A stretch of 64,000 nucleotides of DNA, taken from Candidatus Poribacteria bacterium. Lineage in GTDB: Bacteria; Poribacteria; WGA-4E; WGA-3G. Where the stretch lies: the NCBI GenBank assembly GCA_958295815.1, contig OY282374.1, forward strand, positions 3,684,682 to 3,748,681, given 5' to 3'. Position 1 is the first letter of the stretch. Every line of letters starts with the position of its first letter. Below the pieces are notes generated by a model that did no database searches, was not told the origin of the DNA, and saw only the letters and a list, made by a program, of their open reading frames with translations. The translations under genes were made by a program, and so were the position numbers. This document shows, piece after piece, positions 3,953-22,403 of this stretch.

Positions 3953-6250
3953 ATGCATTTCACTAAAAAACAACACATATTTACTTACACACTCATGCTT
4001 TGTGCTTTGCTTCTCCTGATTCCACTGAGCACATTGGCACAGACCGTTAACATTCCAGACAACAACCTTCGAGAGGCAATTAATGAGACACTTGGCAAGG
4101 AACCAAATGCTCAGATTACGATGGATGAAATGCTCAGGTTAACTCACTTTGAGGCGAATTTCGTCAATATTCGCAACCTGCGAGGACTGGAAGCCGCTAC
4201 GAATCTGGAAGTTTTACGAATGGATGGTAACCAGATATCCAACCTATCACCGCTCGCTGGGTTGGTTAAACTCCGTCGTATTGACTTAGAAGAAAACGCT
4301 ATATCCGACTTATCACCCCTCGCTGGAGTAATTAGTTTAGAGCGTTTGAATATCTCTCATAACGCGGTTTCTGATATATCACCCCTCGCCGAACTAACGA
4401 ACTTAAGGGGTTTTGCATTCCATCATAACGTGATAACGGATCTATCGCCGCTGGCAAATTTGCCAAAACTGGAATGGATTGGGATGAGTGATAACCCATT
4501 CGTTGACCTCGAACCTTTAGCAGAGACCACCAGCCTTACCGGTGTCCACGGTTGGGGGACACCCGTCCTAAACATCGGCGCACTTGGTAACTTACCCAAA
4601 ATGCGGGAGATCAATATCTGCGGTGGCGATATCTCCGATCTCTCCGGACTTGAGAACTTAAAAAGTCTAAAGACCCTTTATCTGCCCGGGAACCAAGTTT
4701 CAGACCTTTCACCCATAGAAAATTTAACAGGAATAACACGCATCAACCTTGAAGGGAATAGGGTTTCCGACGTATCACCACTCGCATCACTAAGCAACCT
4801 AACTTGGATAGACCTACGCCGCAATACAGTCTCCGACGTTTCTCCCCTTGCTGAACTCAACAGTTTGACATGGCTTGACCTTACCCAAAATTCCGTCTCG
4901 GACGTATCCGATCTTGCATTTTTACCGAACTTGAATTGGTTAGGACTCACAGACAATACGCTCACAGACCCAACGACTTTAGAAAGATTTTCTGAGGGGA
5001 CAGCGATCACATATTCCGATTTCGTCAACTCCGCCTTGCCTGAAGGAGGTCCGAAAATAGAGGGACCTTGGTTATGGGCAATCGTGCCGAATGCAGGATT
5101 CGGTACAAAAGATTTGTTAGCGATAGCGAGCAATGGTGCTGCCACCGAAGTAAAAGTTGCCACATTTGGAGCCACCGAAGATAAGGTGATCGGGAGTGGT
5201 AAGTGGCGCGCACACTTGCTCTCCGCCACAGGTGGAGATAACCTTAATCAGATGACAGACGCACTCGGATGGGGGTCGGGTTCCGAAATATACGAGCATG
5301 TTGTTTATGGTTCCGTTACCTTAGAGTCCCCGCGTAGACAGGAAACAACAATGCTTGTCGGCAGCGATGATGAGGTAAAGGTCTGGCTTAATGGTGAAGT
5401 GGTTCACTACAATTCTGTGATCCGAGGTGCTGGTGATTATCGGGATGCCTTTCCTGTTACATTGAAGAAGGGAACAAATGTTTTATTAGTAGCCGTTAGC
5501 AATCTCGGACATGGTGCATTTAGCGGTTTTTTTGGTTTCGCTCAGGACGCAGAATATACCGTCAACGCTCCAGGTGACCCAATCGTCATAGAAATTTCCC
5601 CTTCGGATATTAACAGAGATGGAATCATAAACATCTTGGATCTGATTCTCGTAGCACGGGACTTAGGCAATACCGAATCTGACAACGCACGCACGGATGT
5701 CAATGCTGATGGAAAGCGAAACATATTGGATCTCAATCTTGTGGCTCGACATATAAACAAAGCTTCGAGTACTGCCGCTCCCGCTGCCTTGGCAACATCG
5801 GATGTGTTTATAACTGCCGGAGGAGTTTCTAACCCCGAAATTTCTCCAGATATGATACGCACATGGATAGCATGGGCGCAGCTTGAGAGCGACGGTTCGC
5901 TTATCTTCCAACAAGGCATCGCGAATCTTAAACGGCTCTTAGCATCTCTGATTCCTGAAAGAACAGCGTTGCTCGCCAACTACCCGAACCCATTCAATCC
6001 GGAGACATGGATACCCTATCAACTCGCAGAACCGACTGCAGTTACATTGCATATCTATGCGGTAAGTGGGGCATTGGTTCGGACATTGGAGTTAGGACAT
6101 CAATCCGCAGGACGCTATCAAGACAGAAGTCGTGCAGCATATTGGGATGGGAAAAACGAGGTCGGTGAATCTGTCGCGAGCGGTATATATTTCTATACCC
6201 TCACCGCAGGAAACTTCACAGGTACTGGCAAAATGCTCATAAGGAAGTAG
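3953..6250 (+). CDS. Secreted leucine-rich-repeat protein with a lectin-like middle domain, a dockerin-type double repeat and a T9SS/FlgD-Ig-like C-terminal sorting domain
   Basis: Signal peptide, then ~13 LRRs of the 'ISDLSPLAGL..L..L.L..N' type. A ~170-aa domain is shared with the next gene (GGPKIEGPWLW…VWLNGEVV…GFFGFAQDAEYTV). The dockerin is 'DINRDGIINILDLILV…DVNADGKRNILDLNLV'. The C-terminus reads 'NYPNPFNPETWIPYQL…IYAVSGALVRTL…WDGKNEVGE.VASGIYFY.L…KMLIRK'. Confidence 0.8.
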   Translation: MHFTKKQHIFTYTLMLCALLLLIPLSTLAQTVNIPDNNLREAINETLGKEPNAQITMDEMLRLTHFEANFVNIRNLRGLEAATNLEVLRMDGNQISNLSPLAGLVKLRRIDLEENAISDLSPLAGVISLERLNISHNAVSDISPLAELTNLRGFAFHHNVITDLSPLANLPKLEWIGMSDNPFVDLEPLAETTSLTGVHGWGTPVLNIGALGNLPKMREINICGGDISDLSGLENLKSLKTLYLPGNQVSDLSPIENLTGITRINLEGNRVSDVSPLASLSNLTWIDLRRNTVSDVSPLAELNSLTWLDLTQNSVSDVSDLAFLPNLNWLGLTDNTLTDPTTLERFSEGTAITYSDFVNSALPEGGPKIEGPWLWAIVPNAGFGTKDLLAIASNGAATEVKVATFGATEDKVIGSGKWRAHLLSATGGDNLNQMTDALGWGSGSEIYEHVVYGSVTLESPRRQETTMLVGSDDEVKVWLNGEVVHYNSVIRGAGDYRDAFPVTLKKGTNVLLVAVSNLGHGAFSGFFGFAQDAEYTVNAPGDPIVIEISPSDINRDGIINILDLILVARDLGNTESDNARTDVNADGKRNILDLNLVARHINKASSTAAPAALATSDVFITAGGVSNPEISPDMIRTWIAWAQLESDGSLIFQQGIANLKRLLASLIPERTALLANYPNPFNPETWIPYQLAEPTAVTLHIYAVSGALVRTLELGHQSAGRYQDRSRAAYWDGKNEVGESVASGIYFYTLTAGNFTGTGKMLIRK

Positions 6251-18658: not shown

Positions 18659-18674
18659 ATATCTCATAAATCGT

Positions 18675-18938
18675 GGGAGGGGTTTCTAACCCCGATGTGC
18701 TTCTGAAAGCTTACTATCTCCGCTGAGAAGTTTTCCAATCTCGTCAATCATAAGGTCTATAGGTAATCATAGGCTTTACTATAATTATCCACAGAAGTGA
18801 TTTCCGAACTGTATCGATCCATAGCCCCAGCGGGGCGATATGTGTATAGCAGCATAGATTCTTCCGCTGATCCAGCCCCAGCGGGGCGGCATGTGTATAA
18901 CGTACTAACTGCTCTTTGTAGGAGGGGTTTGTAACCCC
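18675..18938. repeat. Cluster of short intergenic repeats: a hairpin (gggaggggtttctaaccccg), 2 copies of a ~30-bp unit 'agccccagcggggcg[at/gc]atgtgtata', and a copy of the 'ctgctctttgtaggaggggtttgtaaccccgac' element
   Basis: The ~30-bp copies lie at 18823-18852 and 18875-18903. The element at 18905-18938 recurs at 52355-52391. Confidence 0.8.
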
Positions 18939-18981
18939 GACGCTTTACAAGTGTTCATGTAATTAGACTTTATCAAGAACT

Positions 18982-19335
18982 ATGGAAACCACTAATTTGA
19001 AACAACGCTTGGCACAAGGCGAAAATACCGACACTGAATTCAAAGAGAACTTCGATCAGGAGGCTATTGAGACCAAAATCATCTTTGACTCACCGATTCA
19101 AGAGACAACTTTTGTTGAAATTGATGACATTTCAGAGCAGTTAAACGGACGTCAAAAGAACGCTTTTTCCTATGCACAAAGACGTGGAGAAATCTCGAAA
19201 AGAGAATATATGGAAATCAATCATGTGTCACATCGGATTGCCTACACCTAATTAAGGGATATGACGGATAAAGGGTTATTGTCTATGGTAGGGAAGGGGA
19301 GGTCAACTAAGTACGTACGAAAAATAACTGATTAG
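18982..19335 (+). pseudogene. Remnant of an AlbA_2 / HATPase_c_4-type (Schlafen-like, 'RecG-like helicase-domain') transcriptional regulator: first ~25 aa of the AlbA_2 domain joined to the C-terminal wHTH, with an in-frame TAA
   Basis: The N-terminus 'LKQRLAQGENTDTEFKENF' matches the 'GE.etlEFK' start of divergent-AAA/AlbA_2 domains. The C-terminus 'ISKREYMEINHVSHRIAYT*LRDMTDKGLLSMVGKGRSTKYV' matches the conserved wHTH (…TNKEY.ELTGVS.RTA.RDL..LVEKGLL.RVGKGRST.Y). The stop at 19252-19254 is in the same frame. The central ~350 aa are missing. Confidence 0.6.
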
Positions 19336-19470
19336 GTAACTGATTAATTGGGCGATTACGCACCGAATGTATCTGTAATCCACAGTGAAGCGTTATGTCT
19401 GTAATCGGAAGGAAGCAAGGTTGATTAATTAAGCGATTGGTAAACAATTCTCGTAAGGAGTTTGTCCTAC

Positions 19471-20775
19471 ATGCCAGATAAAAACATCTCAGGCATCACC
19501 AAGATAGCTGTAAAAGGCTTCAAGTCCATAGCGGAGGAGCGTGAAATCGACATCCGTCCACTGACGATCCTTGCCGGTGCGAACAGTTCCGGGAAATCCA
19601 GTATCATGCAACCGCTATTGATGTTAAAACAGACGTTGGAGGCACCCTACGATCCAGGACCGCTATTAATTGATGGACCGAACGTTCGGTTTACTTCGAT
19701 AACCCAATTTTTGTCCATGTTACCTGACAAAAAGGAAATAGACTGTTTTCAGGTTCGGATTGAAATTCATGTGCCTGATTCTTATCGCTCGGTTACCACG
19801 ACTTTCAGAAAAGGTATAAATCGGATTGAACTTATCGAAATGACAGCAAAAGAGAGGGTAAGAAACAACCATACTTTATCTCCGGAATGTTTGACCTTGT
19901 ATCCTGAGATGGAATCTGAAGAAATTAAATCAGCAATTGAAGGACTCTCAATTCCCAAAAATCTTGAGACAGTAAAGCGTTTCCGATGTTTTTTAGTTCT
20001 TGGATTCAAAGATGGTTATACGATTTTCACCGTTACCCCTGATTTTGAGTCCAATATTCTTAACAGCATCCATCTCCCCGGTTTACGCGGAAACCCAGAA
20101 CGCATATACAAACTCACTAGCACTGGACCACTGTATCCGGGTACGTTTGAAAACTATGTTGCGAGTATCGTCCACGAGTGGCAGGAGACGAAAGACGGAC
20201 GCCTAAAAATGGTAGGCGATGCCCTTCACACGCTTGGACTGACAGGACAGGTCCGCGCTAACAAAATCAATGATGCCAATATTGAACTTCAAGTTGGTCG
20301 CCTCCCTCACGACAGAACCAACGACATGGATATGGTCAATATCGCTGATGTAGGTTTTGGTGTATCCCAAGTCCTTCCTGTTTTGGTTGCTGTGATTGTC
20401 GCAGAGCCGGGGCAGCTGGTCTATCTTGAACAACCCGAACTGCACCTCCATCCGCGCGCGCAAGTCGCATTAGCACGAGTCCTTGCAGACGCTGCAAAAC
20501 GAGGGGTGCGTGTTGTCACTGAAACACACAGTTCATTACTGCTTTTGGGGATTCAAACGCTTGTTGCCGAAGGAGACCTCACCCCAGAGTTAGTGAAACT
20601 CCACTGGTTCACACGACGTGAAAATGGTGTAACTGAAGTTACCAGTGCTAATTTAGACGAGGCAGGAACTTACGGGGATTGGCCCGAAGATTTTGCAGAT
20701 GTCAGTCTCAATGAACAAAGTCGTTATCTTGATGCCGTTGATAACGTAAAGTTTGGTAACACGGAGGCTTCGTGA
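19471..20775 (+). CDS. Soluble ABC-type ATPase of the AAA_21/DUF3696-like class (no transmembrane domain)
   Basis: Walker A 'LTILAGANSSGKSS', a degenerate signature 'VGFGVSQVLP', Walker B 'QLVYLEQPELHLHP', and H-loop 'VVTETHSSLLL'. An SD 'aaggag' lies 10 nt upstream of the ATG at 19471. It is translationally coupled to the next gene (GTGA overlap). Confidence 0.8.
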   Translation: MPDKNISGITKIAVKGFKSIAEEREIDIRPLTILAGANSSGKSSIMQPLLMLKQTLEAPYDPGPLLIDGPNVRFTSITQFLSMLPDKKEIDCFQVRIEIHVPDSYRSVTTTFRKGINRIELIEMTAKERVRNNHTLSPECLTLYPEMESEEIKSAIEGLSIPKNLETVKRFRCFLVLGFKDGYTIFTVTPDFESNILNSIHLPGLRGNPERIYKLTSTGPLYPGTFENYVASIVHEWQETKDGRLKMVGDALHTLGLTGQVRANKINDANIELQVGRLPHDRTNDMDMVNIADVGFGVSQVLPVLVAVIVAEPGQLVYLEQPELHLHPRAQVALARVLADAAKRGVRVVTETHSSLLLLGIQTLVAEGDLTPELVKLHWFTRRENGVTEVTSANLDEAGTYGDWPEDFADVSLNEQSRYLDAVDNVKFGNTEAS

Positions 20776-21305
20776 GAGATAGAAATTCAAAACGATTGGT
20801 GATTGACACTGATGTTGTCCAATCGTCAGGTGATGAAGAAGCAACCGATCCACGAGCCGTTCATTGTCGTGATTTCCTAAAGGAAGTGAGGTCTCAGAAT
20901 CATAGGGTGGTAATGACAAGAAAAATCAGTGATGAATGGAAAAGACATCAATCTCGCTTTTCCCTTGAATGGAGAGTGTCGATGGATGCTCGCAGAAGAG
21001 TGGATCGCGTTGATCCACCGGAAAATGAAAAACTGCGAGACAAGATCGTTGATACAACAAGCAATCAAGATGAGATCGCGGCACTGCAAAAAGATTTTCA
21101 TCTTCTCCAAGCTGCATTGGCAACCGATCAGACGATCATTTCGCTTGATGAAATCATCCGAAAACTTTTTGCACGTGTTTCCCAACAGGTTGGAGAAATT
21201 AGGCATGTTATCTGGGTGAATCCTGATCGAACTACAGAAGAGCAACCGATCACTTGGCTCCAAAGCGGCGCACCGCCTGAAACACACCGCCAACTTTCTG
21301 CTTAA
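20772..21305 (+). CDS. Small PIN-like (possibly TOPRIM-like) putative nuclease partner of the ATPase
   Basis: The GTG start overlaps the upstream TGA. 'KRLVIDTDVVQS' resembles PIN motif I (hhhDTshhh), and 'LQAALATDQTIISLDEIIRKLF' resembles the PIN C-terminal 'A.A…LhTxD..f' motif. There are no HNH or Cys motifs. Confidence 0.5.
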   Translation: MRDRNSKRLVIDTDVVQSSGDEEATDPRAVHCRDFLKEVRSQNHRVVMTRKISDEWKRHQSRFSLEWRVSMDARRRVDRVDPPENEKLRDKIVDTTSNQDEIAALQKDFHLLQAALATDQTIISLDEIIRKLFARVSQQVGEIRHVIWVNPDRTTEEQPITWLQSGAPPETHRQLSA

Positions 21306-21484
21306 TCTTATATTCATTGGATTCTATATAACTGCCACTCCAATGGAACTAAAGAACCTCAATTGAATAAGACTCTTAAAATCCGCGTCATCTGTGTAAT
21401 CCGCGTCATCCGCAATTCAGACAATTAACACTGTGTCTGACTGGCCAACGAAGTTAAACCTCTTACCGCCGACCGTCGACTGCT

Positions 21485-21531
21485 ATAATCCTGCAAATCC
21501 TTGAATCCTGTAAATCCGCAATTCAGACAAT
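21485..21531. repeat. ~46-bp repeat 'ataatcctgcaaatcctt[g/t]aatcctgtaaatcc…ttcagacaat'. Second copy at 22645-22690; related 'tccgcaattcagacaat' at 21412-21428
   Basis: The direct repeat is ~90% identical. The two copies flank the 21531-22403 gene, and the second copy lies ~110 bp upstream of the 22801 gene. Confidence 0.75.
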
Positions 21532-22403
21532 CATCCCTGCCAACCCAAATTAATACTCGTATATCCGTCCGTATATTGATGCAAATGTTGCGGCAAATCC
21601 GCTAAGAACTGCCTACCCTCTTCTGGAATCTCCCACGGAATATCAATATGATGCTCCCGGCTCCTAAAACCGACAGCACACGACAACCGGATCTCATCAG
21701 CCTGATTTGGGAATGCACCATGATACGTTCTGTGTGCGAACACAATCATATCCCCAGGATTTGTGAACAGCGGCACTAACCCCGGAATATCAAACCCTAC
21801 ATAACCCTTTTCTTCTTCGCCCTCTTTGTAAAAAGAGCGTTTGTCCGCCGTCAGGTTGAAACCTTCCGGTCCCTCCCAGTTTTCCACATGCGAACCTTCA
21901 ATCACACAGAGTCCGCCATGTTCAGGACGCGAACCCGTCAAGTAGAACCATTTACCTGAAGGCCAAAGACCACGGTTCAGTACATCGCCTGAGTTCTTAG
22001 GTGTATCTGTTGAAAACCCGCACCAGTCGGTATGCCAAGCAACCGGTTGAGAGCCAGGCATCCGAATGATAGCAGCAGACCGATGGAGGGTCAAATCCTC
22101 TGCCCCAATCAGATGGTGGTGTGTTTTCATAAAGGGTTCGTATTCCAGAAGCTGCCAAGCACCCGGTCCAGACTCAATCCAAGCATGTCGAGTCTGGCTC
22201 TGCCCAGGCTTTAATTCCCTTTTCGGATCAGTGCCATCAAAAACCGCCTGTTTTGAAACTTCGACTAACTCAGGAGGCAAAACATCTTTGATAATCGCGA
22301 AGCCGTGTGCCTCCAGACATTCCGACATGAGAGAGAGCTGATCAATCCCAAACTCGTAAGTATAGCCAAGTTCAGGTTTCTGAATCTCCAAATATTCTTT
22401 CAT
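21531..22403 (-). CDS. Phytanoyl-CoA dioxygenase (PhyH) family 2OG-Fe(II) oxygenase
   Basis: 'AWHTDW…' His/Asp facial-triad context, '…IVFAHRTYHGAFPN…', and PhyH-like length. Confidence 0.75.
   Translation of the reverse strand: MKEYLEIQKPELGYTYEFGIDQLSLMSECLEAHGFAIIKDVLPPELVEVSKQAVFDGTDPKRELKPGQSQTRHAWIESGPGAWQLLEYEPFMKTHHHLIGAEDLTLHRSAAIIRMPGSQPVAWHTDWCGFSTDTPKNSGDVLNRGLWPSGKWFYLTGSRPEHGGLCVIEGSHVENWEGPEGFNLTADKRSFYKEGEEEKGYVGFDIPGLVPLFTNPGDMIVFAHRTYHGAFPNQADEIRLSCAVGFRSREHHIDIPWEIPEEGRQFLADLPQHLHQYTDGYTSINLGWQG

Follow-up and report, generated by a model that had tools for sequence, protein, structure and literature searches.

A coupled ABC ATPase and VapC-like PIN gene pair from Candidatus Poribacteria as a subfamily of the HEC-03 design related to Menshen

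What kind of system is formed by a soluble ABC-type ATPase gene that overlaps a gene for a small PIN-like protein, and does it already have a name? The pair considered here lies in a 64-kb stretch of Candidatus Poribacteria contig OY282374.1, the whole of which is called the window below, and consists of gene 1, encoding the ATPase, and gene 2, encoding the PIN-like protein (Table 1). A sequence-only reading of this DNA had proposed a defence or abortive-infection module that matched no named system and varied the architecture of OLD, PARIS, and Septu. We find that the pair is a new subfamily of the published HEC-03 design, related to Menshen, and not a new kind of system. The best-supported account of its function, to which we assign a probability of about 0.6, is that it is a self-contained two-gene conflict module of the HEC-03/Menshen-core type, in which the ATPase gates a PIN nuclease in phage defence.

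Table 1. Coordinates of the gene pair and of the adjoining features in the window
Feature	Coordinates	Strand	Basis
Gene 1, 434-amino-acid (aa) soluble ABC ATPase of the NsnB/HEC-03 clade	19471..20775	+	Open reading frame, Pfam, PADLOC, ortholog alignment
Ribosome-binding site of gene 1, AAGGAG	19455..19460	+	Sequence; 10 nt 5' of the ATG
Coupling junction: Shine-Dalgarno sequence GGAGG (20763-20767), GTG start (20772) overlapping the TGA stop of gene 1 (20773-20775) as GTGA	20763..20775	+	Sequence
Gene 2, 177-aa VapC-like PIN-domain protein	20772..21305	+	Open reading frame, alignment, structure prediction
Pseudogene remnant of a 459-aa gene with SLFN_AlbA_2, HATPase_c_4, and winged helix-turn-helix (wHTH) domains	18982..19332	+	blastp/tblastn against the intact gene of locus L001
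Intergenic repeats 5' of the Schlafen (Slfn) remnant	18673..18940	+	Repeat search; not part of the module

The ATPase, the PIN protein, and their obligate pairing

Both open reading frames are present where the sequence-only reading had placed them. The start of gene 1 is most plausibly the ATG listed in Table 1, downstream of its AAGGAG; the TTG at 19462, listed by the open reading frame finder, has no usable spacing to this site. The Pfam search returned AAA_21 (E = 9e-23) and AAA_15 (1e-21), with a sub-threshold match of the tail to DUF3696 (9e-4), and no transporter or membrane domain, while NCBIfam gave no match above cut-off for gene 1 or gene 2. The set of Walker A, degenerate signature, Walker B, and H-loop that had been noticed in gene 1 is borne out, its motifs being invariant or nearly so in an alignment of 77 orthologs. 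Walker A occupies residues 36-44 (G.NSSGKSS in the orthologs), and residues 200-213 carry an IH.PGLRGNP.R.Y motif that is invariant among them. At the signature position, residues 293-300 read DVGFGVSQ (DVG.GVSQ in the orthologs), with GxG replacing SGG. Walker B, VYLEQPELHLHP, has EQPE at residues 320-323 and follows the ortholog pattern VY.EQPE.HLHP, which places E-Q where the canonical motif has D-E. This substitution suggests slow ATP hydrolysis, and with it a protein that may act as a switch and not as a motor. Beyond the H-loop ETHS (residues 351-354) there is a DUF3696-like helical tail (residues ~370 to 420), detectable in 41 of the 77 orthologs, and the C-terminal LHWF...W..DF tail is again invariant.

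Canonical PIN nucleases carry a D-E-D-D set of acidic residues at fixed places relative to their strands and helices. Gene 2, which does start with a GTG overlapping the stop codon of gene 1 and preceded by GGAGG, contains the PIN-like motifs first noticed in it, LVIDTDVV and AALATDQTIISLDEII, and its predicted structure has the alpha/beta/alpha PIN fold. The model, computed from a 120-sequence alignment that reached Cyanobacteria, KSB1, and others, has a pLDDT of 95.3 and a pTM of 0.91; a first AlphaFold 2 model from 23 Poribacteria-only sequences had a pLDDT of 51.8 and was kept out of the fold search. The closest solved structures are VapC toxins, and the best Foldseek matches in the Protein Data Bank (PDB) also include HARP/PRORP RNase P and Nob1. 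The PIN core spans residues ~8-140 and is followed by a conserved C-terminal extension of ~40 aa, carrying W148, N150, P151, W162, and G166, that continues the fold.

The candidate catalytic tetrad of gene 2 is D12, E55, D108, and D126, with D119 in addition. Among 139 representatives of the family (35-66% identity), D12 and E55 are each present in 137, D108 in all, and D126 in 128, with a further 8 having E at this position. W56, D108, and W162 are invariant, and D12, C32, E55, H59, K107, D119, S124, D126, R130, W148, N150, P151, and G166 are conserved in at least 90%. In the predicted structure D12 lies at the end of beta1 and E55 in the helix after beta2; D108 begins the helix that precedes beta4, and D126 comes immediately after that strand, as part of an S-x-D motif. 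Gene 2 reads as a VapC-like PIN nuclease that is predicted to be catalytically competent, because these four residues occupy the canonical D-E-D-D positions as judged against the predicted strands and helices.

The structure rules out DUF4276, TOPRIM, or RloB as the identity of gene 2, and neither Pfam nor PADLOC gave a TOPRIM or HNH match. By sequence the protein is close to invisible to current annotation: Pfam returned PIN_12 alone, below threshold (E = 0.0038; 18 bits against a cut-off of 32), PADLOC no model at all, and the family profile found nothing meaningful among PDB sequences (best match ArsR, E = 0.11). Within the family PIN_12 matches 9 and PIN_3 6 of the 139 representatives. A homolog search produced 485 matches, almost all from Candidatus Poribacteria; none of the homologs listed carries a Pfam domain, and every one named by its source is a "hypothetical protein". 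The family is nevertheless large. A profile search of 1.84 billion cluster representatives recovered 2,159 gene 2 clusters (50% identity) at E <= 1e-3 and 492 at E <= 1e-30, nearly all of them 170-190 aa long and matched over their full length.

The pairing of the two genes was followed in one genome per GTDB species (185,579 species genomes), where at least 169 gene 2 loci were found; this count is a lower bound because a single peptide pattern was used. The 80 loci kept for analysis come from Poribacteria, KSB1, Acidobacteriota, Cyanobacteria, Chloroflexota, Planctomycetota, Myxococcota (Sorangium), Proteobacteria, and Methanothrix. Every one of them has, directly 5' of gene 2 and in the same orientation, a full-length ortholog of gene 1 with 46-81% identity. 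The ATPase and PIN genes overlap at 48 of the 64 junctions that could be scored (by 4 nt in 32, by 8 nt in 10, and by 2, 5, or 11 nt in 6), and at the other 16 they are 1-7 nt apart. In four non-Poribacteria lineages examined individually, the gene of an AAA_15/AAA_21 ATPase of 448-451 aa stands directly before the PIN gene, and the flanking genes are unrelated. None of the clusters of neighbouring genes in the 80 loci is shared between phyla, so the pair has no universal third gene. A DUF262/NsnA gene in particular is absent from the called genes of the individually examined loci and from the 25 Pfam families found on 114 neighbours, and the pair is thus independent of NsnA, the first component of Menshen.

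Both genes are under purifying selection, with dN/dS values of 0.12-0.19 (0.14-0.17 for gene 1), and together they form an intact, obligate two-gene unit. A scan for promoters and terminators at the pair gave nothing above shuffled background. The relationships of the two genes within Poribacteria disagree: gene 1 is nearest to loci L029, L025, and L033 (dN 0.11, against 0.17 to L014 and L016), and gene 2 is nearest to L014 and L016 (dN 0.12, against 0.18-0.20). This discordance suggests recombination within the operon among Poribacteria lineages.

Relation to HEC-03, Menshen, and other ATPase-effector systems

Among PADLOC models, gene 1 is matched best by NsnB of Menshen (E = 3.8e-55; residues 9-414 against profile positions 2-337 of 345), followed by the HEC-03 ATPase model PDLC04148 (4e-40) and PDC-M55A (1.8e-38). 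The NsnB model outscores the HEC-03 model by 186 to 136 bits. Weaker and partial matches were found to AriA, HEC-01, PD-T4-4, Old, and GajA, those to AriA, GajA, Old, and PD-T4-4 being secondary matches between 1e-24 and 1e-10. The ranking of models is the same in 77 of 77 orthologs, all of which match NsnB (best 1.4e-65) and the HEC-03 ATPase (best 3.7e-46). The claim that the pair is not matched to a named system holds in a narrow sense: automated tools would not give it a name, as gene 2 matches no PADLOC model and NsnA is absent. PDC-M55 was considered as an existing name for the pair and rejected, as it denotes a three-gene cassette. In PADLOC-DB v2.0.0 the labels of PDLC04147 and PDLC04148 appear to be swapped relative to the HEC-03 preprint: the model labelled "HEC-03B", of 458 positions, picks up the ATPase and the one labelled "HEC-03A" gives weak matches to PIN proteins, while in the preprint HEC-03A is the ATPase and HEC-03B the PIN protein.

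HEC-03 (Hma-embedded candidate 03) of Pseudomonas cichorii combines a DUF3696 ABC ATPase with a VapC-like PIN protein, was discovered inside Hma defence loci of Proteobacteria, and protects Escherichia coli against phages in a manner that requires both genes (Payne et al. 2024, bioRxiv 10.1101/2024.01.29.577857). Its ATPase, WP_025259138.1, carries the annotation "DUF3696 domain-containing protein", and its two genes (322707-324092 and 324079-324552) overlap. The window pair has the same layout, a two-gene operon of overlapping genes with the ATPase first and a small VapC-like PIN partner second, and the two ATPases have G.NSSGKSS, DVGFGVSQVLP, EQPE.HLHP, E(S/T)HS, and the DUF3696 tail in common. 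Beyond these motifs the systems diverge. The ATPases are just 26% identical (BLASTP over 397 aa, E = 6e-24), with gene 1 nearer to the NsnB model, and gene 2 is 20 aa longer and has the conserved W/N/P-rich C-terminal extension. The PIN sequence families also differ: hhalign gave a probability of 4% between them, the gene 2 family profile scored the HEC-03 PIN WP_025259137.1 at 5.0 bits, which 4 of 2,000 shuffles exceeded, and the HEC-03 PIN model PDLC04147 matched 2 of the 139 family members (best E = 0.0047). Finally, the window family is chromosomal and in most cases surrounded by housekeeping genes; it occurs in Poribacteria, Cyanobacteria, Acidobacteriota, Chloroflexota, Myxococcota, and Methanothrix.

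The second comparison is with Menshen, which consists of NsnA (a sensor with ParB-DUF262 and ParBDB), NsnB (an ABC ATPase with DUF3696), and NsnC (an inactive PIN domain with a toxin) (Li et al. 2025, PMC12065111, citing Millman et al. 2022). In AlphaFold 3 models the PIN-like domain of NsnC sits between two DUF3696 tails of an NsnB tetramer; in NsnB, GxG replaces SGG and DE is replaced by EN, and all 35 Menshen inactive PIN (inPIN) families lack the acidic tetrad (PMC12065111). Gene 1 shares with NsnB, its closest PADLOC family, the DUF3696 tail, the GxG, and a Walker B in which DE has become E plus an amide residue, and in both systems the ATPase gene is followed by one for a protein with a PIN-fold domain. 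In contrast to Menshen, the genes upstream of the window pair are a permease gene and the Schlafen remnant, with no NsnA. The PIN of gene 2 stands alone and keeps D-E-D-D, whereas that of NsnC serves as an inactive adaptor and is joined to a C-terminal toxin that varies; after the gene 2 core there is the ~40-aa tail alone. The window family is also highly conserved and not hyper-polymorphic.

These likenesses, with NsnB the best PADLOC match for gene 1 and all its orthologs and a partner that is PIN-like as in NsnC, would be expected of a degenerate Menshen from which NsnA and the effector domain at the C-terminus of NsnC have disappeared. We consider this extremely improbable. No DUF262 gene adjoins the pair in the window or in the 80 loci, gene 2 retains the tetrad that the Menshen inPIN families lack, and the NsnC model, absent from the 15 PADLOC families matched, was matched by 0 of the 139 family members. 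Sporadic decay is further made unlikely by the two-gene form being a huge, conserved, and selected family of 2,159 clusters. By its sequence relationships the window family is instead a sister family, very large and of wide taxonomic range, to HEC-03 and to the NsnB-NsnC core of Menshen. Neither the HEC-03 preprint nor the Menshen paper describes a link between HEC-03 and Menshen or this family.

The sequence-only reading had assumed that PIN proteins are not known partners of such ATPases. This premise is wrong, because HEC-03 and Menshen pair them with a PIN and a PIN-like protein, respectively, and the variant of the OLD/PARIS/Septu theme that it had presented as new is a design already published for HEC-03. 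PARIS (AriA/AriB), Septu (PtuA/PtuB), Gabija (GajA), and OLD do resemble the pair in placing a nuclease effector under the control of a soluble OLD-type ABC ATPase (AAA_15/AAA_21), but their effectors are TOPRIM or HNH proteins where gene 2 is a PIN, and the ATPase matches are confined to the conserved N- and C-terminal lobes. The pair differs likewise from VapBC type II toxin-antitoxin systems. It has no VapB; the upstream partner of the PIN gene is the ABC ATPase, in the window as in all 80 loci, the similarity of gene 2 to Pfam PIN families is sub-threshold, and gene 2 has its additional C-terminal extension.

A proposed mechanism and its standing

We propose that the ABC ATPase assembles, probably as a dimer or tetramer, and that the oligomer would hold the PIN nuclease inactive in a complex formed through the DUF3696 tails. 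Inserts in the ATPase would sense a trigger, most likely a protein or nucleic acid of phage origin, and the resulting change in the ATP-bound state would release or activate the nuclease. The active PIN would then cleave RNA (tRNA, rRNA, or mRNA), leading to growth arrest of the infected cell, or abortive infection. Complex formation, the nature of the trigger, RNA as the substrate, and an antiphage phenotype of the pair are all inferred here by analogy only.

Several features of the family weigh against this proposal. Outside Poribacteria the pair is flanked almost wholly by housekeeping genes, such as those for a GT2 glycosyltransferase, RpsB, Tsf, an Hsp70-like protein, and urease, and defence genes are rare among the 114 neighbours, with one ShosA, one type II methyltransferase, and one PtuA-like ATPase. 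Within Poribacteria and several cyanobacterial families it occupies a stable syntenic site, and no homologs of gene 2 were found in 72,556 plasmids, 50,697 phage genomes, or IMG/VR contigs. The gene 2 family and the HEC-03 PIN do not detectably belong to one sequence family and appear to have the VapC-like PIN fold alone in common. As the module is chromosomal and, beyond Poribacteria, lies among housekeeping genes, its role in defence is argued from homology and architecture. The idea that it would be conserved as a gene pair in defence islands thus holds for the pairing, at all 80 loci, and not for the setting outside Poribacteria. The defence or abortive-infection module first proposed for the window is retained as the best-supported reading on the strength of that homology.

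An alternative is a toxin-antitoxin-like or stress-response module without a primary antiphage role, in which the ATPase would neutralise a VapC-like toxin and respond to a signal from within the cell, for instance nutrient or translation stress. In most phyla the pair is a solitary two-gene insert among housekeeping genes, it is chromosomal only and stably inherited at the same site within lineages, and the solved structures closest to gene 2 are VapC toxins; HEC-03, moreover, is toxic when induced (bioRxiv 10.1101/2024.01.29.577857). The ATPase clade (NsnB, HEC-03, AriA-like), on the other hand, is so far known from antiphage systems only, and there is no VapB-like antitoxin or DNA-binding autoregulator at the pair, a 79-aa wHTH protein following it in one lineage only. 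We consider this explanation rather unlikely, although it overlaps with the conflict module, toxin-antitoxin and abortive-infection roles not being mutually exclusive.

A further explanation that draws on the housekeeping surroundings is that the pair is an RNA-processing or ribosome/tRNA quality-control factor, with an ATP-regulated PIN endonuclease comparable to Nob1, Utp24, or HARP. At least 8 cyanobacterial genomes have the pair directly 5' of rpsB-tsf, in most cases with a GT2 glycosyltransferase gene directly 5' of the pair; conservation is unusually high, at 55-62% between phyla, mobile elements do not carry the family, and HARP/PRORP RNase P and Nob1 are among the best structural matches of gene 2. 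A housekeeping factor is nonetheless hard to reconcile with a distribution as patchy as the one found in the species-genome scan, even taking its locus count as a lower bound. The flanking genes differ between phyla, with the rpsB-tsf adjacency found in one phylum only, and a phylogeny incongruent with taxonomy, together with an archaeal copy, points to horizontal transfer. This explanation is therefore very unlikely in our view. The loci adjacent to rpsB and tsf are L048, L050, L053, L057, L061, L074, L076, and L084, from Nostocales and Coleofasciculaceae.

The evolutionary pattern is consistent with a tightly constrained module that spread horizontally and was then inherited vertically over a long time. 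ATPases from different phyla share a uniform 55-62% identity, the archaeal copy included, and the same-phylum ATPases of Chloroflexota and of Planctomycetota are no closer to each other than to those of other phyla; this uniformity, the incongruent ATPase tree, and the archaeal copy are the grounds for proposing horizontal spread. Archaeal copies of the full pair occur in the Methanotrichaceae/Methanothrix metagenome-assembled genomes (MAGs) of L072 and L081, and an identity of up to 59% between the L072 ATPase and bacterial ATPases points to inter-domain transfer. In one non-Poribacteria lineage, whose gene 2 is ~52-53% identical, a 79-aa LexA_DNA_bind-type wHTH gene directly follows the PIN gene (L009:7546-7785 and L007:758-997), overlapping it in L009, and could be a lineage-specific regulator or a third component. 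The PIN protein of L007, P0271, bears the name of candidate division KSB1.

Being chromosomally fixed, non-mobile, and placed among housekeeping genes (rpsB-tsf in Cyanobacteria), the family may not be a classical mobile phage defence at all. As a tentative and rather doubtful suggestion, it could represent a catalytically active, sensor-less core ancestral to Menshen, whose PIN later became a toxin-carrying inactive adaptor, and perhaps a domesticated ATP-gated RNase switch with a cellular role in stress or translation control. Whatever its role, the conflict module we favour reveals no new mechanism class, and its stable, non-island, non-mobile genomic behaviour is atypical for a defence system. 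Its interest lies in part in the annotation gap around gene 2, which has no Pfam, NCBIfam, or PADLOC assignment and whose source-named homologs among those listed are hypothetical proteins, in a family that extends to the Archaea. With a hidden Markov model of this PIN family, defence-annotation tools could recognise loci by the thousand. The pair also offers a simpler two-component model of a DUF3696 ABC ATPase gating a PIN effector, and its apparently active PIN would serve as an evolutionary anchor for the inactive PIN adaptor of Menshen.

Surroundings in the window and in Poribacteria

The common gene order around the pair in Poribacteria, to which the window conforms, is der, glyoxylate reductase, permease, in some loci Slfn, the pair, PhyH on the opposite strand, in some loci a DprA-like gene, a second PhyH, aminotransferase, and sulfatase. 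Compared with locus L001, the window has genes 1 and 2 at 74% and 79% identity and housekeeping neighbours at 86-95%.

Schlafen domains are found in defence proteins. The decayed Schlafen-like regulator that had been recognised upstream of the pair is indeed a SLFN_AlbA_2/HATPase_c_4/wHTH remnant, in which residues 1-52 are joined to ~351-459 (about 53-350 having been lost) and an in-frame stop at 19249-19251 ends an open reading frame of 18982-19251. An intact Slfn gene lies directly upstream of the pair in 8 Poribacteria loci, among them L001 and L005, where the 459-aa gene is 55-88 nt upstream on the same strand. One might thus suppose a three-gene system of Poribacteria, with the Slfn/AlbA_2-HATPase_c_4-wHTH protein as a sensor analogous to NsnA and the window copy crippled by its loss. 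The gene is missing, though, from about two-thirds of the Poribacteria loci and from every non-Poribacteria locus. The same internal deletion is present in a Poribacteria MAG (L025:38-446, VXXH01000691.1), and because it is common to the window and L025, with a dS of 0.8-1.1 since their split, it is old and inherited. By this sequence comparison the pair has been kept intact, and under purifying selection (dN/dS 0.14-0.19), without Slfn ever since. We consider the three-gene system highly improbable; the Schlafen gene neighbours the two-gene module in particular lineages but does not belong to it universally, and the module is independent of it.

The pair had also been described as an island bordered by hairpin and direct repeats. 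The repeats exist, but all of them lie upstream of the pair and the hairpin is dispersed. Two repetitive extragenic palindrome (REP)-like hairpins (18676-18695 and 18921-18940) enclose a 26-nt direct repeat (18823-18848 and 18874-18899) that is local only. The 20-nt hairpin, GGAGGGGTTTNTAACCCCGA, has 5 copies in the window (0 expected), all on the forward strand, at 5819, 10212, 18676, 18921, and 52371, and is for this reason a dispersed REP-like repeat and no island boundary. No match to the upstream repeats was found on the downstream side of the pair, and mobile-element ends were accordingly rejected as an explanation for them. In the convergent intergenic region between gene 2 and PhyH (21380-21539) there are local direct repeats: AATCCGCGTCATC is present in two copies separated by 18 nt, and another repeat, 26 nt long, has its copies at 21408 and 21514.

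Other genes accompany the pair in some Poribacteria loci, where restriction-modification, Fic, or another Schlafen-TPR gene lies nearby, a setting that counts in favour of the conflict module. A DNA_processg_A (DprA-like) gene of ~215 aa is found just downstream of the pair in 13 of them (L001:9046-9693 and L005:9816-10451 included), and neither a copy nor a remnant of it was found in the window. Defence-type genes lie close to the pair in some genomes: L002:9576-16066 encodes an SNF2/PLD restriction enzyme, an N6_N4 methyltransferase, and RE_CfrBI, L005:1-70 and L006:8388-10085 encode MmeI/Eco57I-type enzymes, and L001:10738-11823 is a Fic gene.

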